Positions 11,507 through 60,723 of a DNA stretch of 64,000 nt are shown one piece after another. The translations under genes and the position numbers were made by a program. A model generated the notes under the pieces. It was not told the origin of the DNA. It made no database searches and saw nothing but the letters and a program-made list of their open reading frames with translations. Position 1 is the stretch's first letter; each line of letters begins with the position of its first letter. The stretch is from Campylobacterota bacterium (lineage in GTDB: Bacteria > Campylobacterota > Campylobacteria > Campylobacterales > Arcobacteraceae), in contig JBNJFB010000005.1 of the NCBI GenBank assembly GCA_051746405.1, forward strand, positions 1,993 through 65,992, written 5' to 3'.

Positions 11507-11588
11507 TCTACTTTCCTTAAATGTTTGATAAGAAATTTTATCAAGGAAAGGTATTATAAAAGTATCATTTGTTATAAATTTTAAAATT

Positions 11589-11628
11589 TATAGCTACATT
11601 AATTAAACTCTATATCAATGTAGCTATA
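11589..11628. terminator. 12-bp inverted repeat downstream of nitroreductase (terminator or operator)
   Basis: TATAGCTACATT (11589-11600) / AATGTAGCTATA (11617-11628). Confidence 0.4.
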
Positions 11629-11637
11629 TGATAAAAA

Positions 11638-36571: not shown

Positions 36572-37540
36572 TTATCTTACCATCTGTGTTGCCATATCCA
36601 ATAAATTCTGTTTTATTTTATATTTTTGGCTATTTACATAATCTATTGTTACAAATTCAAACTTTGATTCTTTATAAACTATCACATAAGACTCTGTTTT
36701 ATTATCTATATTTAAAAGTTTGTCAATAGAATATGTTACAAATTCAACTGCCATAAGTCTATCATATACAGTGGGATTTCCACCTCTTTGTATATGACCT
36801 AATGTTGTAGCTCTTGTTTCAATTCCAACTTCATTTTCTAAGAAGTCAACTATATTTTCTGTTTGTTTTGTACCCTCTGCCACAAGGGCTACTATATATT
36901 GTCTACCATTTAATAACTCATTTTTTAGTTTAGTTTTCAGTGAATTTAAGTCATATTCAAGTTCTGGTATTATACAAATCTCTGCTCCACAAGTAATAGC
37001 TGAAACTAGTGCTAAATATCCACAATCTCTACCCATAGTCTCTATAACACAACCTCTTTTAAATGAAGCAGAGGTATCTCTAATAGCATCTGTTGCACCC
37101 CTAATTATATTTAAAGCTGTATCTACACCTAGACAATAGTCTGTAGCAAATATGTCATTATCAATTGTAGATGGTATTGCAATAAAAGGAATAGAAAAAT
37201 CTTTATGAAATTGATTTAAAGCTCGAAATGAACCATCACCTCCAAGAATAATAAGCCTACTTATTCCATATGATTTTAAATTTTCATAAGCTTGTTTTCT
37301 ATATTTATACTCATAAAATCGTTTGGATCTTGATGACCGAATCTTAGTCCCACCCTCATGCATTATTCCTGCTACATCTTCATATGTAGCTTTTTTAATA
37401 GTACCGTTTATTAATCCCTCTAATCCATCATAGATTAAGAATGGTTCTATTTTTAATGTAAAACAGTAATCAACAAACTGTTTTATAGCAGGGTTCATTC
37501 CAGCACAATCTCCACCTGAAGTAAGTATTGCTATTGCCAT
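36572..37540 (-). CDS. pfkA: ATP-dependent 6-phosphofructokinase
   Basis: TSGGD, GGDGS (ATP-type), TIDND, MGR, GHIQRGG. Confidence 0.95.
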   Translation of the reverse strand: MAIAILTSGGDCAGMNPAIKQFVDYCFTLKIEPFLIYDGLEGLINGTIKKATYEDVAGIMHEGGTKIRSSRSKRFYEYKYRKQAYENLKSYGISRLIILGGDGSFRALNQFHKDFSIPFIAIPSTIDNDIFATDYCLGVDTALNIIRGATDAIRDTSASFKRGCVIETMGRDCGYLALVSAITCGAEICIIPELEYDLNSLKTKLKNELLNGRQYIVALVAEGTKQTENIVDFLENEVGIETRATTLGHIQRGGNPTVYDRLMAVEFVTYSIDKLLNIDNKTESYVIVYKESKFEFVTIDYVNSQKYKIKQNLLDMATQMVR

Positions 37541-44072: not shown

Positions 44073-44546
44073 ATGAATGCACAAGCAAATAATAGGTATA
44101 AATTAGTTGAAAAAACTATGAAGAGGTTAGGCTTTGAAAAAAGTTCATTGATAGAGACTCTTCATACGGCTCAAGAAACATTTGGTTATCTTGAAAATGA
44201 AACACTTAAATACATAGCTAAAAGACTAAAAATCCCCTACTCAAAAGTTTATGGAGTAGCTACTTTTTATCACTTCTTTAGACTAAAACCAAAAGGTAAG
44301 CATACAGCTGTTGTATGTACAGGAACAGCTTGCTATATAAAGGGTGCTGATAAAATTCTAAAAGATTTAGAAGATAGATTTGGAATAAAAGCTGGGGAAA
44401 CAACAAAAGACTCTCTCATTTCAGTTTTAACTGCACGTTGTGTTGGTTCATGTTCTATTGCACCTATAGTTATTTATGATAATAAATCAGAAGGTAATCT
44501 TACTTTAGAAGATGCTAAGAAAAATGTTGAGGAACTAATATGTTAA
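44073..44546 (+). CDS. hoxE: Bidirectional hydrogenase diaphorase subunit HoxE (NuoE-like)
   Basis: LIETLH..QETFGYL, YGVATFYHFF, CTGTAC and CVGSC [2Fe-2S] ligands. Confidence 0.88.
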   Translation: MNAQANNRYKLVEKTMKRLGFEKSSLIETLHTAQETFGYLENETLKYIAKRLKIPYSKVYGVATFYHFFRLKPKGKHTAVVCTGTACYIKGADKILKDLEDRFGIKAGETTKDSLISVLTARCVGSCSIAPIVIYDNKSEGNLTLEDAKKNVEELIC

Positions 44547-46159
44547 ATTGTGTTGAAGATTTAGAAAATATAGCCATCAAAAAAAAATCTAGTCAAAAAA
44601 GTTGTAAAAATGAACTTCGTATTTGTACAGGAAGCTCATGTGCTGCTTTGGGTGCAAAAGATTTACAAAAGAGTTTATCTAAAAAAATAAAACAGAATAA
44701 AACAAATAAAGAAACAAAAGCAAAAGCTGTAGGTTGTAATGGCTTATGTTCAGCAGCTATTATGGTATCTTCTTTTAATAAAGAGAATAATAATGAAGTT
44801 ATATATGGTGGTATTCAATTAGAAGATGAGCATAAGCTTCTAGATTTAATTGAAAATAAAAAAAGCTTAGAGGATAAACTTTTAGATACAAATACTCCAT
44901 TTTTTTTAAAACAAAAGAAAATAGTACTTGAAAACGCAGGTATTATAGACCCTGATGATATTGAAGATTATATTATGAATGATGGATATAAAGCTTTATT
45001 TACTGCTCTTGAAGATATGACACCAACAGAAGTAATTGATGAAGTTAAAATTTCTGGACTTCGTGGTCGTGGTGGAGGAGGATATCCAGCAGGTTTAAAA
45101 TGGGAAACAGTATCAAAAGTAGAAGCAAACCAAAAGTATATCATTTGTAATGGAGATGAGGGAGACCCTGGTGCTTTTATGGATAGAGCAGTAATGGAAG
45201 CAGACCCCCACAAAGTACTTGAGGGTATTATTCTTGCAGGTTTTGCTTGTGGTGCATCAAAAGGATATATTTACGTTAGAGCTGAATACCCAATAGCAGT
45301 TGAAAAACTAACAAAAGCTATTAAACAAGCAAAAATGAAAGGTATCCTTGGAAATAATATTGCAAATAGTAGCTTTAGTTTTGATATGGAAATACGACTA
45401 GGTGGTGGAGCGTTTGTATGTGGAGAGGCAACTGCATTAGTATCTTCTATTGAAGGTAATAGAGGAAATCCAAGACAAAAACCACCACATTTAAGTGATT
45501 TTGGACTTTATAAAGACCCTACTATATTAAACAATGTGGAAACATTTGCAAATATAGCTACTATTATACGAAATGGTGGAGCGTGGTACAAGAATATAGG
45601 AACAGAAAAATCAAGTGGAACAAAAGTTTTTGCCCTAACAGGTCATATAAAAAATACAGGTCTTGTTGAAGTCCCAATGGGTATTACACTTCGAGAACTT
45701 ATTTATGATATAGGTGGTGGTATTCCTAATGGTGGGAAACTAAAAGCTATACAAACAGGAGGTCCAAGTGGTGGTTGTATACCTGAAGACCTCTTAGATA
45801 TTACAGTTGATTATGATAGTTTAAAAGAGGTTGGTTCTATAATGGGTAGTGGAGGACTAATTGTTATTGATGAAAGTTCAAATATGGTTGAGGTTGCAAG
45901 ATTTTTTATGGATTTCTCAAAAAGTGAAAGTTGTGGAAAGTGTGTGCCCTGTAGAGTTGGAACAAGCCAATTAGCAGACTTACTAGATAAGTTTATAAAA
46001 AAAGAGGCAAAACAGAGTGATTTTTATCTTTTAAAGAGTCTGTGTGATGTTGTAATTGACTCTAGTCTTTGTGGACTTGGTCAAGCAGCACCAAACCCTA
46101 TAAAAAGTACGATAAAATATTTTGAAGCTGAATATCTTGAAGGAATAGCCAATGATTAA
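44540..46159 (+). CDS. hoxF: Bidirectional hydrogenase diaphorase subunit HoxF (NuoF-like)
   Basis: N-terminal [2Fe-2S] CTGSSC/CNGLC, GRGGGGYP, CNGDEGDPGAFMDR, ESCGKCVPCR, CGLG. Confidence 0.9.
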   Translation: MLNCVEDLENIAIKKKSSQKSCKNELRICTGSSCAALGAKDLQKSLSKKIKQNKTNKETKAKAVGCNGLCSAAIMVSSFNKENNNEVIYGGIQLEDEHKLLDLIENKKSLEDKLLDTNTPFFLKQKKIVLENAGIIDPDDIEDYIMNDGYKALFTALEDMTPTEVIDEVKISGLRGRGGGGYPAGLKWETVSKVEANQKYIICNGDEGDPGAFMDRAVMEADPHKVLEGIILAGFACGASKGYIYVRAEYPIAVEKLTKAIKQAKMKGILGNNIANSSFSFDMEIRLGGGAFVCGEATALVSSIEGNRGNPRQKPPHLSDFGLYKDPTILNNVETFANIATIIRNGGAWYKNIGTEKSSGTKVFALTGHIKNTGLVEVPMGITLRELIYDIGGGIPNGGKLKAIQTGGPSGGCIPEDLLDITVDYDSLKEVGSIMGSGGLIVIDESSNMVEVARFFMDFSKSESCGKCVPCRVGTSQLADLLDKFIKKEAKQSDFYLLKSLCDVVIDSSLCGLGQAAPNPIKSTIKYFEAEYLEGIAND

Positions 46160-46871
46160 GCAAAAAGTCAGAGTAAAAACATTTAAAATTGATGATATAG
46201 ATGTTACAGGAAGATCAGATAGTTCAATACTAGAAGTTGCAAATGAACACAACATAAATATACCAACTCTATGTTATATGGAAGGGTTAAGCTGTGTGGG
46301 AGCATGTAGAATGTGTCTTGTAGAGGTTCGTGGTAGTTCTAAACTTATTCCTGCATGCACAGCAAAAATAAAAGAAGGTATGCAGGTTATTACAAATTCA
46401 ACCAAAGTAGAATCCCACAGAAAAATGGTACTTTCAATGATATTTGCTGAACGAACTCATACATGTAGTGTATGTGTATCAAATGGTCATTGCGAATTAC
46501 AAAATCAAGCAATAGAGCAAAACCTTGAACATAGTTTAGTTCCATATATCCATAAAAGTTTTGAAATGGATGCTTCCCATAAATTTTTCAACTATGACCC
46601 AAACAGATGTATACTTTGTACTAGATGTGTAAGAGTTTGTGATGAAGTTGAAGGGGCTCATGCTTTAGATATTATGGGTCGTGGAATAAATGCAAAAATC
46701 ATACATGATATGGATGAACCATGGAGTGAATCAACCAGCTGTACTAGCTGTGGAAAATGTGTGCAGGTGTGTCCAACAGGTGCATTATTTGAAAAAGGTG
46801 TAAGTGCAACAGAAATGATAAAGAAAAAAGATATAGTAACAAACCTCATTAAAATAAGGGCAAATAGATGA
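46152..46871 (+). CDS. hoxU: Bidirectional hydrogenase subunit HoxU
   Basis: IPTLC, CRMC, HxCxxCxxxGxCELQ, CILCTRC, CTSCGKCVQVCP. Confidence 0.9.
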   Translation: MIKQKVRVKTFKIDDIDVTGRSDSSILEVANEHNINIPTLCYMEGLSCVGACRMCLVEVRGSSKLIPACTAKIKEGMQVITNSTKVESHRKMVLSMIFAERTHTCSVCVSNGHCELQNQAIEQNLEHSLVPYIHKSFEMDASHKFFNYDPNRCILCTRCVRVCDEVEGAHALDIMGRGINAKIIHDMDEPWSESTSCTSCGKCVQVCPTGALFEKGVSATEMIKKKDIVTNLIKIRANR

Positions 46872-47407
46872 AAAAAATAAGAGTTGGTACAGTTTGGTTA
46901 GATGGTTGTTCAGGATGTCATATGTCTTTTTTAGATATGGATGAGAGAATTATTGAGCTATCAGAGTATATGGATGTTGTATATAGTCCCTATGTAGATA
47001 CAAAAGAGATTCCATGTGATGTGGATCTATTTATAGTAGAAGGAGCTTTAAGTACCGACCATGATATTAAAATAATTAAAGAAATAAGAAAAAACTCTAA
47101 AAATATTTTAGCCTTAGGAGACTGTGCGGTAACTGGAAATATCTCAGCTATGAAAAATCTTTTCGGAACAGAAGCTGTTTTACAAAAAGGGTATTTTGAT
47201 TTAGCTGATTACAATGAGAGTGGAAAATATCCATCACAAGTAGTACCAAAACTATTAGATAAAGTAATTCCACTAAATGAAGCAATAGATGTGGATTTTT
47301 TTGTGCCAGGATGTCCTACACCTGCAGATGCAATTTATGAAGTTATTAAAGCAATTATAAAAAACAAAGAGATAAAAATAAGTGAATATACAAGGTTTGG
47401 AAAGTAA
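46868..47407 (+). CDS. hoxY: [NiFe]-hydrogenase small subunit HoxY
   Basis: WLDGCSGCHMS, GDCA, PGCP; no Tat signal. Confidence 0.92.
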   Translation: MKKIRVGTVWLDGCSGCHMSFLDMDERIIELSEYMDVVYSPYVDTKEIPCDVDLFIVEGALSTDHDIKIIKEIRKNSKNILALGDCAVTGNISAMKNLFGTEAVLQKGYFDLADYNESGKYPSQVVPKLLDKVIPLNEAIDVDFFVPGCPTPADAIYEVIKAIIKNKEIKISEYTRFGK

Positions 47408-47408
47408 C

Positions 47409-48839
47409 ATGGAAAAGAAAAAAATAGTAATTAGCCCAGTGACAAGAATAGAAGGACATGCAAAAATCACAATTGATTTAAATAAAAAAGGTAGTGTAGA
47501 TAATGCAAGAATCCATGTGACTCAATTTAGAGGTTTTGAGAAAATTTGTGAGGGAAGACCCTATAGTGAAATGCCCTCACTTACAGCTCGTACATGTGGT
47601 ATTTGTCCTGTTAGCCATGCCATCTCTTCTACAAAAGCATGTGATGAAATACTAGCAGTAAGACCTCCAAAAGCAGGAAGAAATTTGCGTCGTATCATAA
47701 ATCTAGCTCAAATAATACAATCACATGCTTTAAACTTTTATCATCTAAGTGCTCCTGATTTTGTATATGGTTTTGATGCAAAAAAAGATGATAGAAATAT
47801 CTTTAAAATGATTCAAACAAATCCAGATATGGCAAAAGATGGTATAAAATTAAGAGCTTTTGGTCAAAAGATTATTGAAAATCTTGGCGGTAAAAGAATA
47901 CATCCAACTTGGATTGTACCAGGTGGAGTAAGTCACCCTATCACAAAAGAACAAAGAGATGATATCCTAAAACAAATTCCTGAAGCTATGGATATAGCTA
48001 AACGAACTTTAAAATATTTTGTAAATAGTCTTCATAAATTCCAAAAAGAGATAGACTCATTTGGAAATTTTCCATCACTATTTATGGGACTTGTGAATAA
48101 ACATGGGAACTTAGAACACTATGATGGCTTATTAAGATTAGTAGATAGTAATGGTAAAATACTTGAAAATGGAATTAATCCTAAGTTTTACAAAGAGTAT
48201 ATTGGTGAAGCAGTTGAAAATGACACCTATTTAAAATCTCCATACTACAAACCACTGGGATATCCAAAAGGGATGTATAGAGTTGGTCCCCTTGCACGTT
48301 TAAATGTAGCAGAAGCTTGTGGTACACCTCTTGCAGACCAAGAGTTTGATAGATTTAAAAATATCAACAATGGGAAGCCAGTATTAAACTCATTTTACTA
48401 CCACTATGCAAGAATTATAGAGATAATTTATGGTATTGAAAGAATCGAAGAACTTTTAAATGAACCTGAAACATTAGATGAGAATATCAGGTCACATGCT
48501 AATATAAATAGAAACAGAGGTGTTGGATGTAGTGAAGCACCAAGAGGAACACTTTTTCATGACTATGAAGTTTCAAATGATGGTATTATAACCAAACTAA
48601 ATCTTATAATAGCAACTGGAAATAATAACCTTGCTATGAATCAAGGAGTAAAGCAAGTTGCACAAACATTTGTAGATGGAAATAATATTACAGATGGTGC
48701 TTTAAATAGAGTAGAAGCAGTTATCAGATGTTTTGACCCATGTTTAAGTTGTTCTACTCATGCTCTTGGAATTGTTTCATCTAATATAGAAATAAGAGAT
48801 CACGATAAAAAACTATTAAATACTATAAATAGAAATTAA
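47409..48839 (+). CDS. hoxH: [NiFe]-hydrogenase large subunit HoxH (group 3d)
   Basis: TRIEGH, RTCGICP (L1), DPCLSCSTH (L2) followed by a 25-aa cleavable tail. Confidence 0.93.
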   Translation: MEKKKIVISPVTRIEGHAKITIDLNKKGSVDNARIHVTQFRGFEKICEGRPYSEMPSLTARTCGICPVSHAISSTKACDEILAVRPPKAGRNLRRIINLAQIIQSHALNFYHLSAPDFVYGFDAKKDDRNIFKMIQTNPDMAKDGIKLRAFGQKIIENLGGKRIHPTWIVPGGVSHPITKEQRDDILKQIPEAMDIAKRTLKYFVNSLHKFQKEIDSFGNFPSLFMGLVNKHGNLEHYDGLLRLVDSNGKILENGINPKFYKEYIGEAVENDTYLKSPYYKPLGYPKGMYRVGPLARLNVAEACGTPLADQEFDRFKNINNGKPVLNSFYYHYARIIEIIYGIERIEELLNEPETLDENIRSHANINRNRGVGCSEAPRGTLFHDYEVSNDGIITKLNLIIATGNNNLAMNQGVKQVAQTFVDGNNITDGALNRVEAVIRCFDPCLSCSTHALGIVSSNIEIRDHDKKLLNTINRN

Positions 48840-48841
48840 AA

Positions 48842-48867
48842 GGGAGTGTTAAAAAACTCCCCCTTTT
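48842..48867. terminator. Intrinsic terminator between convergent hoxH and pgk
   Basis: GGGAGT-N8-ACTCCC followed by cc-TTTT. Confidence 0.6.
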
Positions 48868-48879
48868 AAAGTGAGTTTT

Positions 48880-50082
48880 TTAATCAAGATTTTCAAAACC
48901 AGGAAGAAGTTTTCCCTCTAATAACTCTAAACTAGCTCCACCACCTGTACTTATGAAACTAATATTCTCTTTCTCTCCTGCTTTGTCTGCAGCATTTGCA
49001 GTATCTCCACCCCCAACAATACTATATGCATAAGTATCTGCAATAGCATGTGCTATTCTAAATGTCCCTTTTGAATATCTACCTATTTCAAAAATACCCA
49101 TAGGTCCATTCCATATAATAGTATTAGACAATCCTATAGCTTCTTCAAAAAGTTTTACAGTAGCAGGTCCGATATCAACAGCCATAAAACCATCTAGCAT
49201 ATCTTGTGATGGCACTACTTTATTATCTACTGGATGGTCTATACTATCTGTTATTACCACATCTACAGGTAAATATAGATTTACTTTAGATGCCCGTGCT
49301 GTTTGTATTATTTCAGTAGCTTCTTGTAAATAATCATTTTCTACAAGTGAAGATTTTGTATCATACCCTATTGCTTTAAGAAATGTATTAGACATAGCTC
49401 CACCAATTATAAGCTTATCTATTTTTGGCATAATATTTTTTAATAGTGTTATTTTTGAAGATACCTTTGCTCCACCTATTACTAAACATATAGGTTCTAC
49501 TGGCTTAAATAATGCTTTTGCAAATGCATCTATTTCACGTTTTAGTAAAAACCCTGCAACCTTAGTTTCCACATACTTTGTTATACCAACAGTAGAACTA
49601 TGGGCTCTATGGCTAGTCCCAAATGCATCATTTACAAAAATATCACAAAGTGATGCCAACTCTTTTGATAACGTTTCATCATTTTTTGTTTCACCAGAAA
49701 AGAATCTAATATTTTCTAATATAAAAACTTTTGAATCATTTGCACTATTTAAAACATCTTTATTTTCTATAAAATTATCTATAAGTTCTACTTTTTTATC
49801 AAGTAATCGCTCTAATCTTTTAACTATATGTTTTAAAGAAAATTTATCTTCATATCCATTTTTCGGCTTTCCTAAATGAGTTACTAAAACTATATTTTTG
49901 GCTTGATGGTCTATACAATAAGTTATTGTTCGAAGTGCTTCTTTAATACGATTATCGTCTGTTATGTTATGATGAGAATCCATAGGTACATTAAAATCTA
50001 CCCGAATAAGTACTCTTTTATTTTTTACATCCACATCTTTTAACGACTTAACATTTTGCATTATTTCTATATTTGATAACAT
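48880..50082 (-). CDS. pgk: Phosphoglycerate kinase
   Basis: RVDFNVP, LENIRF, DAFGTSHRAH, GGAKV, WNGPMG, STGGGASLE; start trimmed to MLSNI after AAGG. Confidence 0.95.
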   Translation of the reverse strand: MLSNIEIMQNVKSLKDVDVKNKRVLIRVDFNVPMDSHHNITDDNRIKEALRTITYCIDHQAKNIVLVTHLGKPKNGYEDKFSLKHIVKRLERLLDKKVELIDNFIENKDVLNSANDSKVFILENIRFFSGETKNDETLSKELASLCDIFVNDAFGTSHRAHSSTVGITKYVETKVAGFLLKREIDAFAKALFKPVEPICLVIGGAKVSSKITLLKNIMPKIDKLIIGGAMSNTFLKAIGYDTKSSLVENDYLQEATEIIQTARASKVNLYLPVDVVITDSIDHPVDNKVVPSQDMLDGFMAVDIGPATVKLFEEAIGLSNTIIWNGPMGIFEIGRYSKGTFRIAHAIADTYAYSIVGGGDTANAADKAGEKENISFISTGGGASLELLEGKLLPGFENLD

Positions 50083-50158
50083 TTTGTACCTTTTTAATAA
50101 TTTATTAATATTATCAAAAATTAAGTACAAAATGATTACAAAATTTTATCAAAAGTAT

Positions 50159-51001
50159 TTAATTTAAAAAGCTATCTTCTACTGCTTGTATCTCTTTTTT
50201 AGAACCAAAATAAAAAGGTGTTTTTTGCTGTATTGATACATTTGTCATATCAAGGATTCGTCCCTTATGACTTATAGCTCGTCCCCCTGCTTCTTCAATA
50301 ATATATGAAATTGGAAAAGCTTCAAATATAATATCATGAACTCCATCAGGAAAAGATTTTGTAGCTGGACTTGAATATACTCCCCCTTTTTTAAACAAAA
50401 TTTGGTGCGTATCCAAAGCCAAAGAGTCAGAAAACCTAAGCCTATAACCCTCATTAAAAAATGAATCTATAAGCTCTTTATGCTCACTTGTCCACTCATT
50501 TGGTAATCCACCAGTTGAGTTTATTTTTCCAGAATTTTCTAGTTTTAGAGGGTCTTGTTCTATAAACTCTCCATTTTCATAGGAAAAGTAAATCACCCCT
50601 TCTTGCTTTGAAGCAAATACTAGTTGGAAAGTTGGACCATAGGTTATATACATTGCAGCTTTTAAGTGAAAAGCATCCATATGATTTTCATAAATTCCAA
50701 AAATAGTACCTAAAGAGAAATCAACATCTATTAAATCTAGATTATCAATTGCAACATAACTAATCTTATACTTGCCATTTTCATTTATTGTTGTATATTT
50801 TTTAGAATATTTACCAATAAAACCATGCACTGATTTAACTTTTTTGAACTCTGTTCTTATTACCTTTGAACAATACTCATTTACTCTATCATGCATCTGC
50901 TCATCGCTTAATCCACTTGAGATAAATTTATCACAATCTGTAAAGACATTTTTTTCAATATCTTCTGCAATATTTGTTATGGCGTTGAAAACTGCTATCA
51001 T
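50159..51001 (-). CDS. Class I FBPase homologue with degenerate active site
   Basis: Overall FBPase_1 layout (GTIFGIY, YGP, GYRLR, GGVYSSP, FEAFP...EEAGG) but VAIDNLD in place of DPLDGSS and GKY in place of SEE. Confidence 0.8.
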   Translation of the reverse strand: MIAVFNAITNIAEDIEKNVFTDCDKFISSGLSDEQMHDRVNEYCSKVIRTEFKKVKSVHGFIGKYSKKYTTINENGKYKISYVAIDNLDLIDVDFSLGTIFGIYENHMDAFHLKAAMYITYGPTFQLVFASKQEGVIYFSYENGEFIEQDPLKLENSGKINSTGGLPNEWTSEHKELIDSFFNEGYRLRFSDSLALDTHQILFKKGGVYSSPATKSFPDGVHDIIFEAFPISYIIEEAGGRAISHKGRILDMTNVSIQQKTPFYFGSKKEIQAVEDSFLN

Positions 51002-51081: not shown

Positions 51082-51897
51082 TTACTTAGCTTCTTTTTTT
51101 GTTCCCTCTAAACTCCCATTTTCCAACTTTGAGAGTTTTATTTTAATACTGTTTTTACAAAAAGCACTTTTAATAATTTCTTGTTCCAAAAACATCTTCA
51201 ACTGTTTGTTTTTACCAACACTTCCACCTAAAACTAAATCAGAAAAATCAAATAAACTTATGGCAGTATGAAAGGCATGTGCCAAACCATCATAAAAATT
51301 ATCTATAATTATTTTACTTTCAGGTGTATTTAGTTTATGCAATTTATCAAGCCTATGATAGTATGAAGTTATTTTATAATACTCACACCATCTTTTTATA
51401 GCACTACCACTTACACTTAGTTCAATACAATCATCTCTACCACATCCACATACAAATGGTGTTTTTTTAAAAGGGATATGTCCTATCTCCCCACTTTGAT
51501 TATTTACCCCTCGTACAAGTTTCCCATCGTCAAGAAAAGCACCTCCAAAGCCTGTTCCAATATAAAAAAGTGCCATTGATTTTGAGCCAGTACTTTTATG
51601 TTCTGCTATTGCTGCACAGTTTAAATCATTATCTATTTTTAGTGCAATTTTGTAAGTATCATTTATATATTTTTTAATATTAAAATTTTCTATAGCTATA
51701 CTTGGAGATTTAACTATAACCCCATCTTTTACTTGACCCGCGAAGCTTATAGATATAAACTCTATTTGTTTATTTTTATTTATAATATCATCTAAAAAAG
51801 TTTTTAAGTCAACTGTTTTACTTCCAAGTGATATAATTTGACCATTATCAAACTGATATCTAAAATTTGTACCACCAAAATCTATATAAAGATTCAT
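51082..51897 (-). CDS. ROK-family sugar kinase (putative glucokinase)
   Basis: IDFGGTN, NDLNCAAIAE, GTGFGG, GEIGH, CGCGRDDCIE. Confidence 0.88.
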   Translation of the reverse strand: MNLYIDFGGTNFRYQFDNGQIISLGSKTVDLKTFLDDIINKNKQIEFISISFAGQVKDGVIVKSPSIAIENFNIKKYINDTYKIALKIDNDLNCAAIAEHKSTGSKSMALFYIGTGFGGAFLDDGKLVRGVNNQSGEIGHIPFKKTPFVCGCGRDDCIELSVSGSAIKRWCEYYKITSYYHRLDKLHKLNTPESKIIIDNFYDGLAHAFHTAISLFDFSDLVLGGSVGKNKQLKMFLEQEIIKSAFCKNSIKIKLSKLENGSLEGTKKEAK

Positions 51898-51904
51898 ACT
51901 AAAC

Positions 51905-52885
51905 TTAACTCTCTTTTAATATTTTTGCAGCAGTTTCAGGCAAAAAAGTATTTATCATAATATCACTATCAAGCTCAAATCCAGCAGTTTTGTACAATCT
52001 TGGTATAATTTGAATATGAAATCTATTAGAGTTATGAGTATCTTGTATAGCTCCATTTTTTATAAGCATATTAAAATCACACTCACCCAAAGCTTTTTTG
52101 AGCTTTATAAAACAGTATTGTATAATTTCACTTAAGGAGTAAATCCCTATATCATCTAAATCTAAAATAGAAGATATTTCACCAGTTGCAACTATATTTA
52201 TCTCAAATGAATAACTTGAAGCATAAGGACAAAATGCTATAAAGTAGTTATTCTCAAAAAGTAACCCTTTCATAAAGGTTTTCTCTTCATAAATTAAATC
52301 ATCAAAAAAACATCTATTTGTTTCTTGCTTATATTTACTATACTCTTCAAGGTCAGATGCAATCGTTTTAGGAATAAATGGCGTTGCTATAAGTTGTGAA
52401 TGGGAATGCAAGATAGATGCCCCACCATCTTGTCCATAATTTTTAAATATTGAAAAATAATTCAATCTTATATCTTTTTTAAGGTCATTAATACGAAGTT
52501 TTATGATACTAAAATAATCAAAAAACTCATCAATTGAAAAATCAAACATTTGATGACTATGGACAGGAGTTTCTATGATAACTTCATGTGCTCCAAAAGC
52601 ACTCATATTTTCAAAACATCCTGTTCTATATGATTTTACCTCTTTATCAATACTTAATGCATGATATAAATTTGGAACCACTCTGCATTTCCAGTTTTGC
52701 AAAGTACCAATTCTAGCTAGCTCATTAGGTGTTTGCTCTTCATTTCCTTTCTCAAAAGGACAACTTTCTATATCTTTTTTTGTATGATTATCATCATTTC
52801 TATTAAAACTAAAAGGTCTTCTTGCTCTATTTGGAGCAAATAAAACCCAATTTTTTGTTAGCTTATTATATCTAAATTCTGACAT
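51905..52885 (-). CDS. GalT-like hexose-1-phosphate nucleotidyltransferase
   Basis: RARRP, CPF, VVPNLY, GAHEVIIETP, KNYG..GGASILHSHSQ (HxHxQ). Confidence 0.85.
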   Translation of the reverse strand: MSEFRYNKLTKNWVLFAPNRARRPFSFNRNDDNHTKKDIESCPFEKGNEEQTPNELARIGTLQNWKCRVVPNLYHALSIDKEVKSYRTGCFENMSAFGAHEVIIETPVHSHQMFDFSIDEFFDYFSIIKLRINDLKKDIRLNYFSIFKNYGQDGGASILHSHSQLIATPFIPKTIASDLEEYSKYKQETNRCFFDDLIYEEKTFMKGLLFENNYFIAFCPYASSYSFEINIVATGEISSILDLDDIGIYSLSEIIQYCFIKLKKALGECDFNMLIKNGAIQDTHNSNRFHIQIIPRLYKTAGFELDSDIMINTFLPETAAKILKES

Positions 52886-54972
52886 TATATGTACCAATTC
52901 TTTAAATCTAAATTTTCTATATCTATTATAAAACTATTATATAATGGGAAAGATTGAACTTTATTCGCCCCTTCAAATATAGAAAACTTAAAATCTATTT
53001 TTTTTCCTACTGTTAACTGTTTTGATGAAAACTCTATTTGTATACTATTTTCCAATGAAAAAACATTACAAGAGATATCTTCTTGAATAATATTTTGCTT
53101 ACCTTTTGTAACAAATATTTCAAACTCCTTATCATTTAAAGTAACTATTAATGATATTTTTTTAAAAAGCTTTGCAAAATTTCCATCAAAAAAGAGATAA
53201 AATTTCCCTACATTATAACCATATTTAATATTTTTTACTATATTTTTAGAGCTATCCATAACTGAAAACTCTTTTTTTATATCAATAAAACCACTATTTA
53301 TCCACTCAAAATAATTACTTTTATCACAAGCTAGGTTTTGATAAATAAAACTTAAAGGTTTTGTATGAAAACCATTATTTGAAGTGTCATCAACAATTGG
53401 TCTTAATATTTCTAAAGGTGTTGGAAGCTTTAGATACTCATAAATATTTATAAGGTGCGTTCTAAAAAATGTATCAAACTCTTTGGACTGAACAGTAAAA
53501 TGGTCATCTCCATACCACCAAAACCAATCACTTGCCAATGCCACCATAAATTCATTTTCAATAAGCTGTAGAGTTTTTTTATCTAAAGAGTTTTTATATT
53601 TATCAAAATCCCTTTTTGTAATACTTAAAAGCTCCCAAGCTCTATTTTTTTGTTTACTTCCTATCCAAATATCAAAGTTTCCATTTATCCAACTTCCACT
53701 ATGTATATGTGATAATGTTTCGCATACTATTTGTTTATCATGAGTTACTTCATCCATTGTTACTGTTTCTATCCAAGAAGTACTTTCAAATAAGCTATAT
53801 AGTTCATTAAAAAACTCAAATGCATTATTTGGAAAAAACTCCCAAGCATTTTCTCCATCAAGTATAACATTAACTAATGGCATAAAATCACATGAGTTAT
53901 ATATCTCTTGCAAATGCTCTACAAATCTTTTTGCAGCTACTTTTGGTTCTATATTACTATACTCAAAACCTATTAAGTCACTTAAGTAATGGTCTCTAAA
54001 TCTCACATCAATAACACCATTTTGTGTTTGTAACTGATAATTTTTATAGATATCTTTTTTCTCTCTTTTGTTAGGTGATTTAAAAAGAGTCTCTTCATCA
54101 CTACAAAACCATTGCAAACCATTTTTTGTAAATAATTCAGCAGTATCCTGACTTACACTACCCTCTGCAGGCCAAAAACCCTTTGTTTTCTTTCCAAATC
54201 TATTTTCAAAAAATTGTATTGCATCTTCTGTATTTTTTATACCAAACTCCTTAAAAGAAGCTAACTTTTCTGGCATAACCACATCATGTTTTGCTTTTTT
54301 TGCATTTGAAAAGTCAAGTAATAATGGTGTGATTGGATGAAAATAAGGAGTGGTACAAACTGTTATTTTATTCTCACTATCTAACTTTTTATACAACTGT
54401 ATTATAGATGGTAAAAATGCAACTAGTTCATTTATAAGTTTTATTTTCTCTTCTTGTGAAAAATTATCTCCTTTTGCTAAAAGGAACTTAACCTCTTCAT
54501 TGGAAGTTCTTAAATATACACCACACCATGATAAAAGAAATAATACCTGTGTATCTAAAAGCTCACTAGAACTAAAATCTTGTATAGTTTTATGTGTATT
54601 GTATTTTAAATAAAGCTCATAATATCTTTTAAGAGGTTTTATCATATTTTTTTCATTTGATAAAAAAAGATAACTTTGAAGATACTCTTTATCATGAGTA
54701 GTAAGGTTTACTATATCTTTTTTTAAAGTCTCAAGTAGTTTATCATTTGCACTATTATCTATATATGACTCTATTTGACGCACTAATGAGGGAACTAGGT
54801 TAAAAGTAGTTTTAAGATTAGGAAATAAACTACCATACCAAGGTATATCATAATAGTCTTTTATTGAGTGTAAAAATACCCAAGGAAACAGTGTTTTATC
54901 TGACTTATCATCTTTATAATATGGCTGATGCATATGCCATAAAAATGCTAGTTTTAATTTTTTTTCACTCAT
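52885..54972 (-). CDS. GH57 amylopullulanase-like glycoside hydrolase
   Basis: WHMHQP, GFWPAEG nucleophile, ILDGENAWE acid/base, ASDWFWW. Confidence 0.88.
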   Translation of the reverse strand: MSEKKLKLAFLWHMHQPYYKDDKSDKTLFPWVFLHSIKDYYDIPWYGSLFPNLKTTFNLVPSLVRQIESYIDNSANDKLLETLKKDIVNLTTHDKEYLQSYLFLSNEKNMIKPLKRYYELYLKYNTHKTIQDFSSSELLDTQVLFLLSWCGVYLRTSNEEVKFLLAKGDNFSQEEKIKLINELVAFLPSIIQLYKKLDSENKITVCTTPYFHPITPLLLDFSNAKKAKHDVVMPEKLASFKEFGIKNTEDAIQFFENRFGKKTKGFWPAEGSVSQDTAELFTKNGLQWFCSDEETLFKSPNKREKKDIYKNYQLQTQNGVIDVRFRDHYLSDLIGFEYSNIEPKVAAKRFVEHLQEIYNSCDFMPLVNVILDGENAWEFFPNNAFEFFNELYSLFESTSWIETVTMDEVTHDKQIVCETLSHIHSGSWINGNFDIWIGSKQKNRAWELLSITKRDFDKYKNSLDKKTLQLIENEFMVALASDWFWWYGDDHFTVQSKEFDTFFRTHLINIYEYLKLPTPLEILRPIVDDTSNNGFHTKPLSFIYQNLACDKSNYFEWINSGFIDIKKEFSVMDSSKNIVKNIKYGYNVGKFYLFFDGNFAKLFKKISLIVTLNDKEFEIFVTKGKQNIIQEDISCNVFSLENSIQIEFSSKQLTVGKKIDFKFSIFEGANKVQSFPLYNSFIIDIENLDLKNWYI

Positions 54973-54978
54973 GATTTA

Positions 54979-56970
54979 TTATATATCTTTTATTGTAAAT
55001 TGCATTATTGTATTGAAACTTTTAACAAAATCAAATACAAAACCAAAACTTATCCCTTGATTTGTAATATCAAGCCCTTTTTCACTTTGACTAATAGTGT
55101 TTAGTGGTACTATTAATATATCAATATCTTTTTGAAAACTAAAACTTATTATCTTTTTTGTATATCTATCTTTAATTATAAGTTCACTTGTATGTAGCTT
55201 TAAAGTTGATTGATTATCTTCTAAGATAAGATTATTAAAACTCACTTCTTGTATATTAGCAAAATGTAGATTCCACTCATGAAAATAGTAAAGTTTTTTA
55301 GTAAAACTACTCTTTAAGCCTATGTCTATTTCTATACTATTTTTTAAAAATTTATAAGATTTTTCAATCTTTGTATCAAACTTCTTATCTAAATAGATAC
55401 CACCATCTCTTTTTAAAGAGATTTTTTTTGATCTATTTTTACTCTCTTCATAAGGCTGATTTGCAAAATCTCCTAACTCATGAAAACTATTATTAAAAAA
55501 GCTTTCACAGGATATTGCATTTACAATATGATCAATAGCTGATTTTTTTAAATACCAATCTATAATAATCTTCATATCTTCTTTTAGTAGAAGTTTATTA
55601 TCGTGAATAGTTATTAACTCTTCTTTTTCTTCTAAACTACTATCACCTATTACTATTTCCTTATGATAGGCTTCTTCATGTCTTGTGAGTGTATTTTGTA
55701 GATTATATTTTTCATCTAATAAATCAAGTTCAACTATTTGTCCTCCATGTTTAGATGATATAATAGTAAGAAGGTTTTCACTTTTAAATTTATATTCATC
55801 ATACCCATCCATATCAATATCAATAGTCTCTTTTGATGTTTTAAGCATGGTTTCACAATCTATTATATACTTATATGTATTATCTCTTAAATTTGGAAGA
55901 TATATACCTCCAAATACACCATGCCATAATACATCATTACATTGTGATTTATAAAGTGCTTCTTTATATTTTGTACTTGTACCTTGTTTGTTAGAAAGTT
56001 CTAAAAATCTTTTTTGAATCCAGTTACTCTCTTGATATTTATTAAAAAAATTCTTCCATGTGCCCCCATTAATAAAATGAGATAGCTCTCTTTGAGAATT
56101 CATTAATGAGTCAACTTTAATTGCTTCAGCACACTTTAATGACCACTTCCCCATTTCTGAATATGATACTGTTGGTAAATATACCAAACCTAAAGGTTTA
56201 TTTTCCATATAGTAGTCTTTAAACGTTTTACACTCTATTTTCTCATCTGCTAAAGTTTGAGTAATAAAATCTTCTAACCATTTTTTTTCATATACTGTCT
56301 CATATGTTTTTGGCCATATTCCAAACTTTTCCCCATCATCAAAAAGAATAGCTGCATTTTTTCCTTGTGTATTCTCAAAACTATGAAGAAGATTATTTGT
56401 AGTTTCTAAATCATAAAAAGGAATAGCATATCGTAACTCTTGATTTATAGGAAATATCCCTATAGAGTCACCGCCCTCTTCTGTAATGAAATATCCTGTT
56501 GTATCTTTAACATCAACTCCTGTAGAAATAAGATGATAATCATCTACTATTACATACTCAACGTTACACTGCTTTATATCTCTTATAATACTATTGTCCC
56601 AAACCCTTTCAGTAAGCCATAGACCTTTTGGAGTTTGGTTAAAGTGTTTTTTTATATAGTTTGATAGCTTTTTTATTTGAGCTATTCTATCTACAGCTGG
56701 AATAGAGGCTAAAATTGGCTCATAAAACCCTCCTGTAAAAAACTCTATTTGTTTTGATAGTGATTTTATAAGTGAAAAAAGCTCCTTATCATTTTTTTGT
56801 ATAAACTCTAAAAGCCATCCACTAAAATGAACAGAAAATTTAAAATCAGGAAACTTTTGAACTGTTTGAAAAAAAGGCTTATAAGATTTCTCAATCGCAT
56901 CATATATTACATAATCAAAATTATCAATTGGTTGATGAGAGTGAACCCCTAAAAGAAATGTTGTTTTCAT
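54979..56970 (-). CDS. GH57 4-alpha-glucanotransferase / alpha-amylase
   Basis: HSHQP, GLWLTERVW, FDDGEKFG, SQCNDVLWHG. Confidence 0.88.
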   Translation of the reverse strand: MKTTFLLGVHSHQPIDNFDYVIYDAIEKSYKPFFQTVQKFPDFKFSVHFSGWLLEFIQKNDKELFSLIKSLSKQIEFFTGGFYEPILASIPAVDRIAQIKKLSNYIKKHFNQTPKGLWLTERVWDNSIIRDIKQCNVEYVIVDDYHLISTGVDVKDTTGYFITEEGGDSIGIFPINQELRYAIPFYDLETTNNLLHSFENTQGKNAAILFDDGEKFGIWPKTYETVYEKKWLEDFITQTLADEKIECKTFKDYYMENKPLGLVYLPTVSYSEMGKWSLKCAEAIKVDSLMNSQRELSHFINGGTWKNFFNKYQESNWIQKRFLELSNKQGTSTKYKEALYKSQCNDVLWHGVFGGIYLPNLRDNTYKYIIDCETMLKTSKETIDIDMDGYDEYKFKSENLLTIISSKHGGQIVELDLLDEKYNLQNTLTRHEEAYHKEIVIGDSSLEEKEELITIHDNKLLLKEDMKIIIDWYLKKSAIDHIVNAISCESFFNNSFHELGDFANQPYEESKNRSKKISLKRDGGIYLDKKFDTKIEKSYKFLKNSIEIDIGLKSSFTKKLYYFHEWNLHFANIQEVSFNNLILEDNQSTLKLHTSELIIKDRYTKKIISFSFQKDIDILIVPLNTISQSEKGLDITNQGISFGFVFDFVKSFNTIMQFTIKDI

Positions 56971-57031
56971 ATTTTAACCCCTTATTTGGTTGTACTAATG
57001 TTATTCTTATTTAATCACAGTTTAATTACAA

Positions 57032-58456
57032 TTACTGATATAGCTCTATATATCTTAAAGCAGAGTGTTCCCAGGAGTTATCAACTGCCATATTATGCTT
57101 TGAAATAGTTTCAAACTTTTGATGATTTGCATAGAGACTTAAAGCTTTTGCAATAGCATGCATAAACCAAAAGATATTTTGCTCTTCATATGTGATACCT
57201 ATACCTATATACTCATTAAGACTTGAATAATCCACATCTGTAAAATCAACCACACTATCTTTAAGTCCTCCAGTTTTTGCAACTATTGGTAAAACACCAT
57301 ATTTCATACCTATCATTTGATTCAATCCACAAGGTTCAAAAATAGATGGCATAAGTAAAAAATCCGCAGCTGCATATAGTTTTCTTGAAAAACTCTCTTC
57401 ATATCCAACTTTTATATAAACATTAGGATAACTAACGGAAATATTATTGAAAATTGTTTCGTAATGCTTTTCTCCACTTCCAAGTATGATAAAGTTTGCT
57501 TCAAAATCTTTTAAAAGATTTAAACTCTCTATAAGTAAATCAATACCTTTTTGATTTGTAAACCTACCTATAAAAATAAAAAGTGGCTTTTGACTGCGTT
57601 TAAAACCTATATCTGCTAAAAGTTGTTGTTTATTTTCATTTTTATTTTTATAGTTTTTTAGTGTAAACTTTTTATATATATTTAAATCAATTTTAGGATT
57701 AAACACCTCATAGCTTATTCCATTTAAGATTCCAGAAAGTTTATAATTGTTTGCAATAAGTGTGTGCTCTAAGTCATTACCAAAAAGCTTTGTTTGAATC
57801 TCATTTGCATATGTGGGACTAACAGTTGTGATTTTATCACTATAAAAAATACCAGCTTTAAGAAAATTTACTTCATCGTGATACTCTAAAGCTTCTTTCT
57901 TAAAACACTTATCCCAAGAAAGTTCAAGTAAATCAACACTATTTTTTGGATAAATTCCTTGATAAGCAAGATTATGAATAGTAAGAATTATCTTTTGTGA
58001 TAACTTATATTTTGTTTTTGCCAATAGTGCAATCAGTGCTGTTTGCCAATCGTTTATATGAATAGCAGATATTTCTAAATTCATATGAAAAATTACTTCT
58101 ATACATGCATAAGAAAAGAGTCCAAACCTTAAAGCATTGTCACCAAAATCACCATATCCATCATAATACAGCCCTTCTCTATCACATAAAATTGGATTAT
58201 ATATAAAAAGTTCATATCTATTATTTTTATTATGAAATATATCAAACTGATGGGATACACCATTTAAAGTATAATAAAATGTACAATGAGCGTACTGTAA
58301 ATTAAACTTATTTCTATCTATTGTTTGATAAAGTGGCAACACAGTATAAACATCTATGGTATTTCTTAATGCTTCAGGTAAACTTTGTGAAACATCACCA
58401 AGCCCACCACTTTTAGCATAAGGATACATCTCGCTTGTACAAAATAGTAGTGCCAT
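57032..58456 (-). CDS. glgA: Glycogen synthase (GT5)
   Basis: PYAKSGGLGDV, HINDWQT, TIHNLAYQG, RFTNQKG, PSIFEPCGL, TGGLKD; start trimmed to MALLF. Confidence 0.93.
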   Translation of the reverse strand: MALLFCTSEMYPYAKSGGLGDVSQSLPEALRNTIDVYTVLPLYQTIDRNKFNLQYAHCTFYYTLNGVSHQFDIFHNKNNRYELFIYNPILCDREGLYYDGYGDFGDNALRFGLFSYACIEVIFHMNLEISAIHINDWQTALIALLAKTKYKLSQKIILTIHNLAYQGIYPKNSVDLLELSWDKCFKKEALEYHDEVNFLKAGIFYSDKITTVSPTYANEIQTKLFGNDLEHTLIANNYKLSGILNGISYEVFNPKIDLNIYKKFTLKNYKNKNENKQQLLADIGFKRSQKPLFIFIGRFTNQKGIDLLIESLNLLKDFEANFIILGSGEKHYETIFNNISVSYPNVYIKVGYEESFSRKLYAAADFLLMPSIFEPCGLNQMIGMKYGVLPIVAKTGGLKDSVVDFTDVDYSSLNEYIGIGITYEEQNIFWFMHAIAKALSLYANHQKFETISKHNMAVDNSWEHSALRYIELYQ

Positions 58457-58457
58457 T

Positions 58458-60050
58458 TTATCTCTCCTTTTTTGTGCAGTATATTCTATAATCACAAAAA
58501 CTAAATAGGGAGTTTTTAGACTCAATCTCTTCTAAAAACTCATAATCTATATCTTCATTAATCATTTCTAATAACATTTGAAAATTACTTATATGCTCTT
58601 TTGTTCTTTTAATACTATATTCAGTAGCTGTTTGAGTTGTCATCAAAAATGCCCAATCACTACTTTGTGCTAGCAATAACTCTCTGTGCATTTGATTTAA
58701 TAACCTTGTATTATTAGAACTTGTACCATCTTTATATCTATTTGCTAACTCTTCCATAGTATCAGCCATGTTATGCAAATGTCTATATATCCAAGAGTTT
58801 CCTTCATTTAACCATACATCATAGTACCCCTTATCTCCCCATGATGAAGCAGATGGACTTATTACTTGATTTTGTGAATACATAGAGAGATACTCAAGAG
58901 GTGTTACAGCTTTAAAAACTTTATGCTTATCAATCTCTTTAAAAATATTGTAGATAAACTCAGGACCCTCAAACCACCAATGACCAAAAAGTTCAGCATC
59001 ATATGGAGACACAACCATAGGAGTTCTGTTCATATTTGATTTTAAAAACTCAAATTGCTTATCTCTTTTAAAGTGAAAATCTTTTGCATGTTCCACTGTT
59101 TTTTGTGAAGCAATTAATGGATTATATACCTCTTTATAATCAGTTTCCCCTGTTACTTTATGATATTTAAATCCAGTAAACTCTCTATTTCCACTAGGGT
59201 CAATATGCTCTTTTATATAATCAAACTCTAAGTCATACCCAATATCTCTATAAAAATCTCTATAGTTGAGATCTCCTGGATAGCCCTCTTTTGAACTCCA
59301 TACTTGCTTTGCAGAGTGAGGGTCTCTAGCAAAAGCTGCAACTTCATTTGTGGTATATACAGGTGCATAAACACCATTTGTAGATGTGGGATTGCCATAT
59401 ACTAAGCCATGTGAATCCATAAAGAAAAATTCAATTTCATTATCTTTTAAAATCTCATCAAGCCCTTCATAATATGCACACTCAGGGAGCCATATTCCTT
59501 TTGGAGCTTTTTTAAAATGCCTTTTATGAGACTCTACAGCTACTTCAATTTGAACTTCAACTGCTCTTTTATTTGGCTTTAAAAGAGGAAGAAAGCCATG
59601 GGTTGCAGCACAAGTTATAACCTCTATTTTTCTAAGGTCATTAAAATATCTATATCCATTTAAAATATTCCTATCTAAAACATTTATAAAAAAATCTTTA
59701 GTTTTTGTATATAAGTCTTGATAAAATAGAGCTAAATCCTTATAGTTTATATCATTTGCCGTTCTTTTAACCTCTTTTTTTGCTAAAAGAAGCTGATTTT
59801 TAAGATGATTTTCATATTTTTTCATAAGATGTTCATCATCTAACATCTGAGCTAGGGGAGGAGTTATAGAAATAGTAAGCCTAAAATCTATATTTTCAGA
59901 CTCAAGTTGTTTAAGTCTGCTTAAAAGTGGTATATAACATTCAGTAATAGCCTCAAATAGCCAATGCTCTTCTAGAAAATAGTCATATTTTGGATGTTTT
60001 ACAAACGGTAAATGTGAATGAAGTACTGGTACCCAATATCCTTTTATCAT
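58458..60050 (-). CDS. GH57 1,4-alpha-glucan branching enzyme (DUF1957)
   Basis: HSHLP, EEHWLFEA, GIWLPEC, PYDAELFGHWWFEG, AQSSDWAF. Confidence 0.92.
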   Translation of the reverse strand: MIKGYWVPVLHSHLPFVKHPKYDYFLEEHWLFEAITECYIPLLSRLKQLESENIDFRLTISITPPLAQMLDDEHLMKKYENHLKNQLLLAKKEVKRTANDINYKDLALFYQDLYTKTKDFFINVLDRNILNGYRYFNDLRKIEVITCAATHGFLPLLKPNKRAVEVQIEVAVESHKRHFKKAPKGIWLPECAYYEGLDEILKDNEIEFFFMDSHGLVYGNPTSTNGVYAPVYTTNEVAAFARDPHSAKQVWSSKEGYPGDLNYRDFYRDIGYDLEFDYIKEHIDPSGNREFTGFKYHKVTGETDYKEVYNPLIASQKTVEHAKDFHFKRDKQFEFLKSNMNRTPMVVSPYDAELFGHWWFEGPEFIYNIFKEIDKHKVFKAVTPLEYLSMYSQNQVISPSASSWGDKGYYDVWLNEGNSWIYRHLHNMADTMEELANRYKDGTSSNNTRLLNQMHRELLLAQSSDWAFLMTTQTATEYSIKRTKEHISNFQMLLEMINEDIDYEFLEEIESKNSLFSFCDYRIYCTKKER

Positions 60051-60577
60051 AGTTTTTCTCCTAAATCTTTAGAGCTTAAATACTCACAAGATATATTACT
60101 ATACTCTTGTATTCTTTTAGTTTTTTTTAGATAAGTTGCATAAATAATATCTTTATTAATAATTTTTATATTATCTGATTCCATAAGATTTTTAATTATC
60201 ATACCGTCTTTATAAACAGCTATAACTTTTATCTCTTTTAAAGATGAATTTGTAGTATCTATATTATAAAAATACTCACCATATAAATATTCACACTTTA
60301 TATTAGCAAGTAAATTCTGTTTTTGATCAACTATATGAAAAAAAATATCATCTAAACTTATACTATTTTTATCTAAAAACTCCTCTGTAAACTCCCAATA
60401 AAAATATGATCTACTTTTATTTACAGGTAGCATTACCAATTTATTTTTATAATATCTTGTTGGAATAATATAATCTTTTTCTTCAACTACATTATCTGCT
60501 ACAATCGTATCAATAGAGTGTATACTACTAGTAAAGTTTCCTGTAGTTAAACTTTCATTTATTAAATTCTCTTTCAT
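60047..60577 (-). CDS. DUF4912-like protein
   Basis: LVMLPV...YFYWE motif; directly upstream of the GH57 branching enzyme; start at ATG 60577 for RBS spacing. Confidence 0.65.
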   Translation of the reverse strand: MKENLINESLTTGNFTSSIHSIDTIVADNVVEEKDYIIPTRYYKNKLVMLPVNKSRSYFYWEFTEEFLDKNSISLDDIFFHIVDQKQNLLANIKCEYLYGEYFYNIDTTNSSLKEIKVIAVYKDGMIIKNLMESDNIKIINKDIIYATYLKKTKRIQEYSNISCEYLSSKDLGEKL

Positions 60578-60723
60578 ATTTAGCAATCTCCTTATATCAT
60601 AAATTATATCGCTAAATAGTTACAAATCAGTTATATAGAAAAAAATTTAAGGTTAAGGCTAATATGTAACTAAAATGTATCTAAAGGTAAGTAAAATAGA
60701 GTAACTTTTAATTAGGATAGATA

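Follow-up and report, generated by a model that had tools for sequence, protein, structure and literature searches.

Can a protein that keeps the fold of fructose-1,6-bisphosphatase (FBPase) and has lost much of its active site still be an enzyme? This question is raised by a gene in a 64,000-nucleotide stretch of DNA from a bacterium of the Arcobacteraceae (Campylobacterota; contig JBNJFB010000005.1), the whole of which is referred to as the window. The product of this gene, for which the name FBPL (FBPase-like protein) was coined here, is read as a non-catalytic pseudo-FBPase that would serve as a regulatory or binding component of a glycogen/glycolysis gene set, and a probability of roughly 55% is given to this reading. 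The following positions carry the argument; residue numbers of canonical sites are those of pig FBPase.

50159..51001, minus strand: FBPL, 280 aa, ATG start, no internal stop
50807..50815, minus strand: G63-K64-Y65, replacing canonical S96-E97-E98 (metal ligand and general-base residues)
50717..50758, minus strand: YVAIDNLDLIDVDF (Y-V-A-I-D-N-L-D...), replacing the (F/Y)-D-P-L-D-G-S-S metal/1-phosphate motif
50369..50371, minus strand: S211 codon (coordinate computed from the start of the open reading frame), replacing the 6-phosphate ligand Y264
50321..50341, minus strand: V221-H-D223-I-I-F-E227, replacing K274-L-R276-x-x-(Y/F)-E280, with K274 and R276 lost and E280 kept

The original prediction had described an intact 280-aa frame in which SEE is changed to GKY, DPLDGSS to VAIDNLD and KLRxxxE to VHDxxxE. 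The frame is indeed uninterrupted, the substitutions are encoded as claimed and the alignments agree with them. FBPL matches the Pfam domains FBPase_C (PF18913, 97.5 bits) and FBPase_N (PF00316, 37.2 bits). Its best NCBIfam models are two short (approximately 280 aa) class-1 FBPase equivalogs, and the scores of 247 bits against NF006784 (cutoff 395) and 210 bits against the other short-FBPase model (cutoff 457) fall below the curated equivalog cutoff for a class-1 FBPase. In a HMMER comparison with PDB sequences, residues 74-272 align with pig and human FBPase. An AlphaFold2 model of FBPL, built from an 88-sequence family alignment, obtained a predicted local distance difference test score (pLDDT) of 92.9 and a predicted template modelling score (pTM) of 0.92. 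The top Foldseek matches for this model were exclusively FBPases (template modelling (TM) scores of 0.82-0.88, E values of approximately 1e-22, 22-26% identity), with pig FBPase matched at a TM of 0.86 and an E value of 1.8e-23. The N- and C-terminal FBPase domains and the class-1 fold are present in FBPL.

The residues that an FBPase uses for catalysis are replaced to a large extent within this fold. To judge this, 1.84 billion cluster representatives were searched and the 150 best were aligned with pig FBPase; conservation in the canonical enzymes was taken from 120 canonical class-1 cluster representatives. Two of the four carboxylate metal ligands are changed (E97→K, D118→V), leaving D121 and E280. 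The general-base and loop residues read E98→Y, D74→N and N64→L, and other family members carry D, Q, N or Y at position 98 and Y, H, R or N at position 74. The 1-phosphate cradle, formed by the D-P-(L/I)-D-G-S-S motif and R276, is lost, as R276 is D in FBPL and the motif reads V-A-I-D-N-L-D (D118→V, G122→N, S123→L and S124→D, with D121 kept). The HMMER alignment places 'kisyvaidnldlid' opposite pig 'vvcFDPLDGSSNID' and 'dgvhdiifeafp' opposite 'kGKLRLLYECNP'. A misalignment of the motifs was rejected, given that HMMER against PDB, MAFFT with 120 family members and MAFFT L-INS-i with the 120 canonical sequences gave identical equivalences. In the canonical set, D118, G122, R276 and E280 are conserved to 100%, E97 and E98 to 99%, S123 to 98%, P119 and D121 to 98-100%, and Y264 and K274 to 94-95%. 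Because E97, E98, D118, G122, S123 and R276 are near-invariant in canonical FBPases, their joint loss is far beyond chance. Considering all 37 columns that are conserved to at least 85% in the canonical representatives, the 21 changed in FBPL and its close relatives are the active-site columns, while the unchanged ones hold structural Gly and Pro residues together with D121, R243, D251 and E280.

The substrate ligands are affected as well, which bears on the claim that the C-terminal substrate-binding half is retained. This claim stands for the fold, as seen from the FBPase_C match, and does not stand for the ligands: N212, Y244, G246, Y264, K274 and R276 are replaced and only R243 and E280 are kept. 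Within the 6-phosphate/sugar ligand set (N212, Y215, R243, Y244, M248, Y264 and K274), the changes are N212→G, where the alignment is less certain (pig positions 212-215), Y244→F, Y264→S, K274→V and the conservative M248→L, to which G246→D is added, and R243 remains. R243 acts in trans and reaches into the active site of the neighboring subunit. The proposal of a catalytically dead sugar-phosphate sensor or regulator is thus to be divided. Its first part holds, in that 'dead as an FBPase' is the most economical reading, but the sensor idea presupposed that the substrate-binding half was retained and, as both the 6-phosphate and the 1-phosphate ligands are replaced, FBPL is unlikely to bind fructose-1,6-bisphosphate (FBP) or fructose 6-phosphate (F6P) in the canonical manner. 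Retention of the adenosine monophosphate (AMP) site was considered as a clue to nucleotide sensing and was dropped, since the conserved G-K-Y (pig 111-113) is common in canonical enzymes too and FBPL is without residues 17-29 of this site.

It had been suggested that orthologues be checked for the same losses under purifying selection, and the losses turned out to be shared clade-wide. The reading frame is intact in all 56 FBPL loci that were scanned, and in 62 loci overall when the window and further loci are counted. Nei-Gojobori ratios of nonsynonymous to synonymous substitution rates (dN/dS) between the FBPL of the window and its closest relatives are 0.07-0.12 (dN 0.055-0.137, dS 0.59-1.54). 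For neighboring genes that encode genuine enzymes, the same comparisons give higher ratios, at 0.13-0.16 (phosphofructokinase, PFK), 0.15-0.24 (GH57 branching enzyme), 0.21-0.26 (GlgA) and 0.18-0.22 (phosphoglycerate kinase, PGK), a rough comparison, since strict orthology of the neighbors is not certain for each pair. These values point to strong purifying selection on the FBPL clade. Among 189 distinct family sequences, pig position 97 (FBPL residue 64) is K in 73%, Q in 16% and R in 10%, position 118 is V in 84%, position 122 is N in 90%, position 124 is E or D in 90%, position 264 is S in 84% and position 276 is E or D in 88%; D121 and R243 are found in 100% and E280 in 99.5%. The G122-S123-S124 segment has become N-(I/V/L)-(D/E), N212 is A or G, Y244 is F and K274 is replaced by variable residues. 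The mean entropy of the former catalytic positions (1.19) is close to that over all columns (1.24), with position 274 among the most variable, and residues 21-41, the former mobile catalytic loop, form the most variable segment of the protein (entropy 2.23 versus 1.16 elsewhere). Average variability at these sites is what would be expected after the loss of catalysis and argues against a conserved alternative active site. The combination of a conserved clade, purifying selection and consistent catalytic replacements would make 'catalytically dead as FBPase' the most economical interpretation.

The family is sizable. A search of 5.8 billion proteins yielded 219 FBPL relatives; the 120 best of these are full length (approximately 278-282 aa) and 55-100% identical, and their named sources are Halarcobacter, Arcobacter, Aliarcobacter and unclassified Campylobacterota. 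Starting from a distant member, a second search gave 310 clusters with E values of 1e-30 or better. In a scan of one genome per GTDB species, which provided the 56 loci, members were found in at least 56 species, almost all of them Arcobacteraceae. Identities across species range from 45% to 91%, and representatives at down to 45% identity (P0123-P0125) carry the same replacement pattern. All eight FBPL sequences scanned (that of the window and seven further members) scored 199-270 bits and none reached the NCBIfam FBPase cutoffs of 395 and 457, and two of three canonical short FBPases scanned pass the equivalog cutoff. In a neighbor-joining tree, the FBPL clade is monophyletic in 100 of 100 bootstraps, has a stem branch of 0.415 and nests among the short Campylobacterota FBPases, the nearest being those of Campylobacter and Helicobacter at 35-44% identity. 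This topology indicates that the clade arose once, from the short FBPases of these two genera. Literature searches found no description of the FBPL family. Loci L031 and L038 (and L019, L047, L048 and L052) stand out by label or base composition. Several FBPL loci have a GC content of 45-51%, compared with 27-30% for Halarcobacter, and the family therefore reaches beyond low-GC Arcobacteraceae. In metagenome-assembled genomes (MAGs) of a single cave study, FBPL contigs bear the labels 'Sulfurovum sp.' and 'Desulfosporosinus sp.', apparently through an error of binning or labelling.

The genomic setting links FBPL with sugar-phosphate metabolism. In the window, FBPL lies near the end of a long minus-strand glycogen cluster, and its position between a kinase and pgk in the company of pfkA is as originally predicted:

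51082..51897, minus strand: ROK-family sugar kinase, 80 bp upstream of FBPL (Pfam ROK 135.9 bits)
48880..50130, minus strand: phosphoglycerate kinase (pgk), 28 bp downstream of FBPL (Pfam PGK 476.8 bits)
48838..48865, minus strand: terminator-like hairpin after pgk (consensus scan only)
36572..37540, minus strand: ATP-dependent 6-phosphofructokinase (pfkA; Pfam PFK 319.8 bits; NF002872 320 bits, cutoff 253)
51905..60586, minus strand: glycogen genes upstream of the ROK kinase (GalT-like/DUF4921, GH57, GH57 4-alpha-glucanotransferase, glgA, GH57 branching enzyme, DUF4912)

The consensus scan predicted no terminator-like hairpin between the ROK kinase, FBPL and pgk, so that co-transcription of the three genes is likely. 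The best NCBIfam matches of the kinase are allose kinase and glucokinase, both below cutoff. As listed, the pgk open reading frame has a TTG start and 16 extra N-terminal residues, and Pfam PGK does not match it before residue 30; the in-frame ATG at M17 is the more likely start and would give a gap between FBPL and pgk of approximately 76 bp instead of 28. The PFK of the island is classified by its profile match as the irreversible ATP type.

Positions 36572-63219 form one contiguous carbohydrate island. Its first part, on the minus strand, reads pfkA-pgi-gap-short alpha-glucan phosphorylase-eno-fba, the second encodes a HoxEFUYH-type NAD-linked [NiFe] hydrogenase on the plus strand (44073-48839), and the third, again on the minus strand, reads pgk-FBPL-ROK kinase-GalT-like-GH57-GH57 4-alpha-glucanotransferase-glgA-GH57 branching enzyme-DUF4912. 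With this layout, glycogen would be stored and later broken down fermentatively, H2 being released, in a lineage that is usually without PFK. The Hox hydrogenase cluster also adjoins FBPL in many relatives. The glycogen operon has no glgC in the window; a GalT-like/DUF4921 HIT-family protein is encoded inside it at 51905-52897, and a divergent gene at 60724-63219 encodes an 831-aa protein in which a sugar-1-phosphate nucleotidyltransferase is fused to a phosphoglucomutase-like domain. The GalT-like protein and the fusion may be the source of nucleoside diphosphate glucose. The alpha-glucan phosphorylase (39830-41473) is short (547 aa); its match to TIGR02094 is split in two, that to Pfam Phosphorylase is limited to residues 294-492, and this compact form is conserved in glycogen operons of relatives. 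Elsewhere in the window, the open reading frames at 5752-7248 (498 aa), 21515-22069 (184 aa) and 24884-25399 (171 aa) have no Pfam match at E values of 1e-5 or better.

The flanks of the 56 loci were examined over 10 kb on either side. The immediate neighbors of FBPL vary across relatives, yet they are always enzymes of sugar-phosphate metabolism and never regulators. FBPL follows pfkA directly, at a distance of 3-73 bp (L009-11, L045, L046, L053), or is divergent from pfkA or a pfkA-pgi pair (L001-3, L024, L030), which, together with the ATP type of the PFK, strengthens the link with PfkA that had been drawn from the window alone. It is found directly downstream of the GH57 branching enzyme in 15 loci (spacing of -8 to 50 bp, overlapping in two), and in some relatives downstream of phosphoglucomutase (approximately 37 bp) or upstream of pyruvate kinase with a 4-bp overlap. 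One subclade (L004, at 10847-11704; L005, L044-L046, L053) has a DUF89/ARMT1-like protein after FBPL at a spacing of -4 to 5 bp, and this protein scores 182 bits, below cutoff, against the NCBIfam 'damage-control phosphatase' model. In L045, L046 and L053 pfkA is upstream too, giving a pfkA-FBPL-DUF89 unit, which would place a dead phosphatase homologue beside a probably live sugar-phosphate phosphatase. A weak sign of transcription comes from a marine-sediment metatranscriptome (true RNA), in which one 178-nt contig lies inside an FBPL orthologue; contigs spanning pfkA and FBPL were found in runs of uncertain type. No RNA evidence was obtained for the FBPL of the window, whose sequence was seen only in a lake-water metagenome.

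From these data, the following course of events emerges. In a single ancestral episode, of which the long stem branch is the trace, the metal ligands E97 (to K, R or Q) and D118 (to V), the general-base residues E98 and D74, the 1-phosphate cradle including R276 (to E or D) and most of the 6-phosphate ligands were replaced, while the fold, D121, E280 and R243 were kept, and purifying selection has acted since then in at least 56 species. Hydrolysis of FBP would have been lost, and FBPL would now serve F6P/FBP-glycogen metabolism as a subunit that regulates or binds. The likeliest route would be through protein-protein contacts inherited from the FBPase oligomer (R243, which acts in trans, and the YRLR segment do not vary) or through a remodelled, more acidic and polar pocket that binds a ligand other than FBP. 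In both cases, the island's ATP-dependent PFK could operate with no futile cycle arising, as originally proposed. An attractive extension of this proposal would have FBPL inhibit a catalytic FBPase outright or modulate PFK. As would be expected of a pseudoenzyme, FBPL combines homology to an active family and loss of essential residues with purifying selection across species. Several observations nevertheless weigh against a non-catalytic pseudo-FBPase. D121 and E280 are still invariant, the remodelled site is fairly conserved and polar (N122 90%, D/E124 90%, E/D276 88%, K/R97 83%), the immediate neighbor of FBPL differs between genomes, and an operon for glycogen synthesis would logically contain a real FBPase.

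The first two of these points also speak for FBPL still being an enzyme whose site has been rewired for a different substrate or chemistry. It might, for instance, be a phosphatase or transferase that needs one metal or none and uses another glycogen or glycolysis sugar phosphate. K64 (at E97) and E/D223 (at R276) would exchange roles and D/E89 (at S124) would replace D118, and E97→K together with R276→E does resemble a charge swap between two residues of one site. The new polar residues are conserved (N87 90%, D/E89 90%, E/D223 88%, D/N192 98%, S211 84%), selection on the protein is strong, and the permanent company of sugar-phosphate enzymes in place of regulators would suit an enzyme. But the new ligands are not invariant, with Q at position 64 in 16%, H, N, S, F, K or Y at position 223 in approximately 12% and N or S at position 89 in 9% of the sequences. 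Covariation between K64 and E223, as expected for a salt bridge, was looked for in the family alignment and not found, and no part of the protein varies more than the mobile catalytic loop. No member of the FBPase/inositol monophosphatase superfamily is known to be active once the first Asp of DPxDG has been lost. An enzyme of this kind is therefore considered possible but doubtful. Rather unlikely is a bolder pair of proposals: that the FBPase fold has gained a new one-metal or metal-independent catalysis with migrated ligands (K at E97, E/D at R276, D/E at S124) on another glycogen or glycolysis intermediate, or that FBPL is an anti-futile-cycle subunit which poisons a catalytic FBPase or tunes the ATP-dependent PFK while the glycogen-catabolic island is expressed.

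It is improbable that FBPL is a divergent but functional FBPase that supplies F6P for glycogen synthesis. At the close of a glycogen-synthesis operon such a function would be metabolically plausible, and several sources do name family members 'class 1 fructose-bisphosphatase', an annotation that would then be right. Furthermore, the named matches of a canonical-profile search belong only to Campylobacter and Helicobacter, with no canonical short FBPase of the Arcobacteraceae among them. However, two out of four metal ligands and four out of six 6-phosphate ligands are replaced, together with both general-base residues and the entire 1-phosphate cradle. Every NCBIfam score falls far short of its cutoff, and co-transcription with an ATP-dependent PFK, as in relatives, would create a futile cycle. 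The family is also patchy, being absent from the named match lists for the heavily sequenced isolates of A. butzleri, A. cryaerophilus and A. skirrowii, which contribute no large cluster. Such patchiness may mean that FBPL is an accessory gene that moves with the glycolysis/glycogen island, the core FBPase of the Arcobacteraceae being a different protein. An fbp gene for gluconeogenesis has been reported in the PFK-less A. thereius (PMC5495459). No other FBPase gene was found in the window or within the flanks of the 56 FBPL loci, and three further canonical representatives lie on contigs of 34-46% GC that are not clearly Arcobacter-like. Decay into a pseudogene, which the original prediction had named as a refutation, or an artefact of annotation can be dismissed as next to impossible. 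Only the loss of catalytic residues speaks for it, and against it stand the frames intact in the window and 61 other loci, the 45-91% identity over at least 56 species, the dN/dS of 0.07-0.12 and the confident AlphaFold2 model.

FBPL is widespread and mis-annotated, and the step concerned is a classic point of control in central metabolism. As most sources label the family 'class 1 fructose-bisphosphatase', reconstructions of metabolism for Arcobacteraceae and related MAGs would wrongly credit these organisms with a gluconeogenic FBPase step next to PFK. If the favored reading is true, FBPL would be a clean pseudoenzyme of bacterial central metabolism with a single origin, approximately 300 protein clusters and strong selection, tied to a mobile island for glycogen, Embden-Meyerhof-Parnas glycolysis and Hox hydrogenase in a lineage that is mostly without PFK. 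The prevention of a PFK/FBPase futile cycle after the acquisition of glycolysis would thereby become directly testable. Should FBPL be active after all, the residue requirements of the FBPase/inositol monophosphatase fold would have to be redefined.

Among known systems, the closest are the short class-1 FBPases of Campylobacter and Helicobacter (NCBIfam NF006782 and NF006784; PF00316, PF18913), which have the same fold and the same length as FBPL. The motifs KGKIN(A/S)TGG, GYRLR(Y/F)S, D(L/T)HQIL.K.GG and FE.FP..(F/Y)I.E.AGG are collinear in both, and the Helicobacter segment IGKDKKQFCMVNKDGKYLVSYVSIDNID illustrates this striking motif-by-motif collinearity. The differences are concentrated in SEE, which becomes G(K/R/Q)x, YDPLDGSS, which becomes YV(A/S)IDN(I/V/L)(D/E), FSYP, which becomes YSSP, and GKLR..FE, which becomes Gx(L)(E/D)..FE. 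Despite the shared fold and ancestry, FBPL falls short at the level of both residues and scores, and judged by these it should not be filed as an FBPase. Mammalian FBP1 (pig and human liver; 1EYI, 1CNQ) resembles FBPL in overall structure (TM 0.82-0.88), and both keep D121, E280, R243, D251 and the structural Gly and Pro residues. Compared with FBP1, FBPL is without the first approximately 29 residues, which contribute to the AMP site; its 52-72 loop is shorter and residues 141-155 are deleted. The shorter loop and the deletion are also found in canonical short forms, whereas the absence of E97, E98, D74, D118, G122, S123, S124, Y264 and R276 sets FBPL apart from any canonical form. Pseudoenzyme paralogues with regulatory functions include HisZ, which acts with ATP-phosphoribosyltransferase, the 'prozyme' of trypanosomatid S-adenosylmethionine decarboxylase (AdoMetDC) and the non-catalytic subunits of plant pyrophosphate-dependent PFK. 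FBPL shares with them the loss of catalytic residues, purifying selection and a gene located with those of the pathway that it would regulate. Roles of FBPases that are independent of catalysis are known from the Arabidopsis cytosolic enzyme (FINS1), which takes part in fructose signalling, and from human FBP1 in the nucleus. Both exemplify that the FBPase fold can act by binding, although their active sites are intact and that of FBPL is lost.

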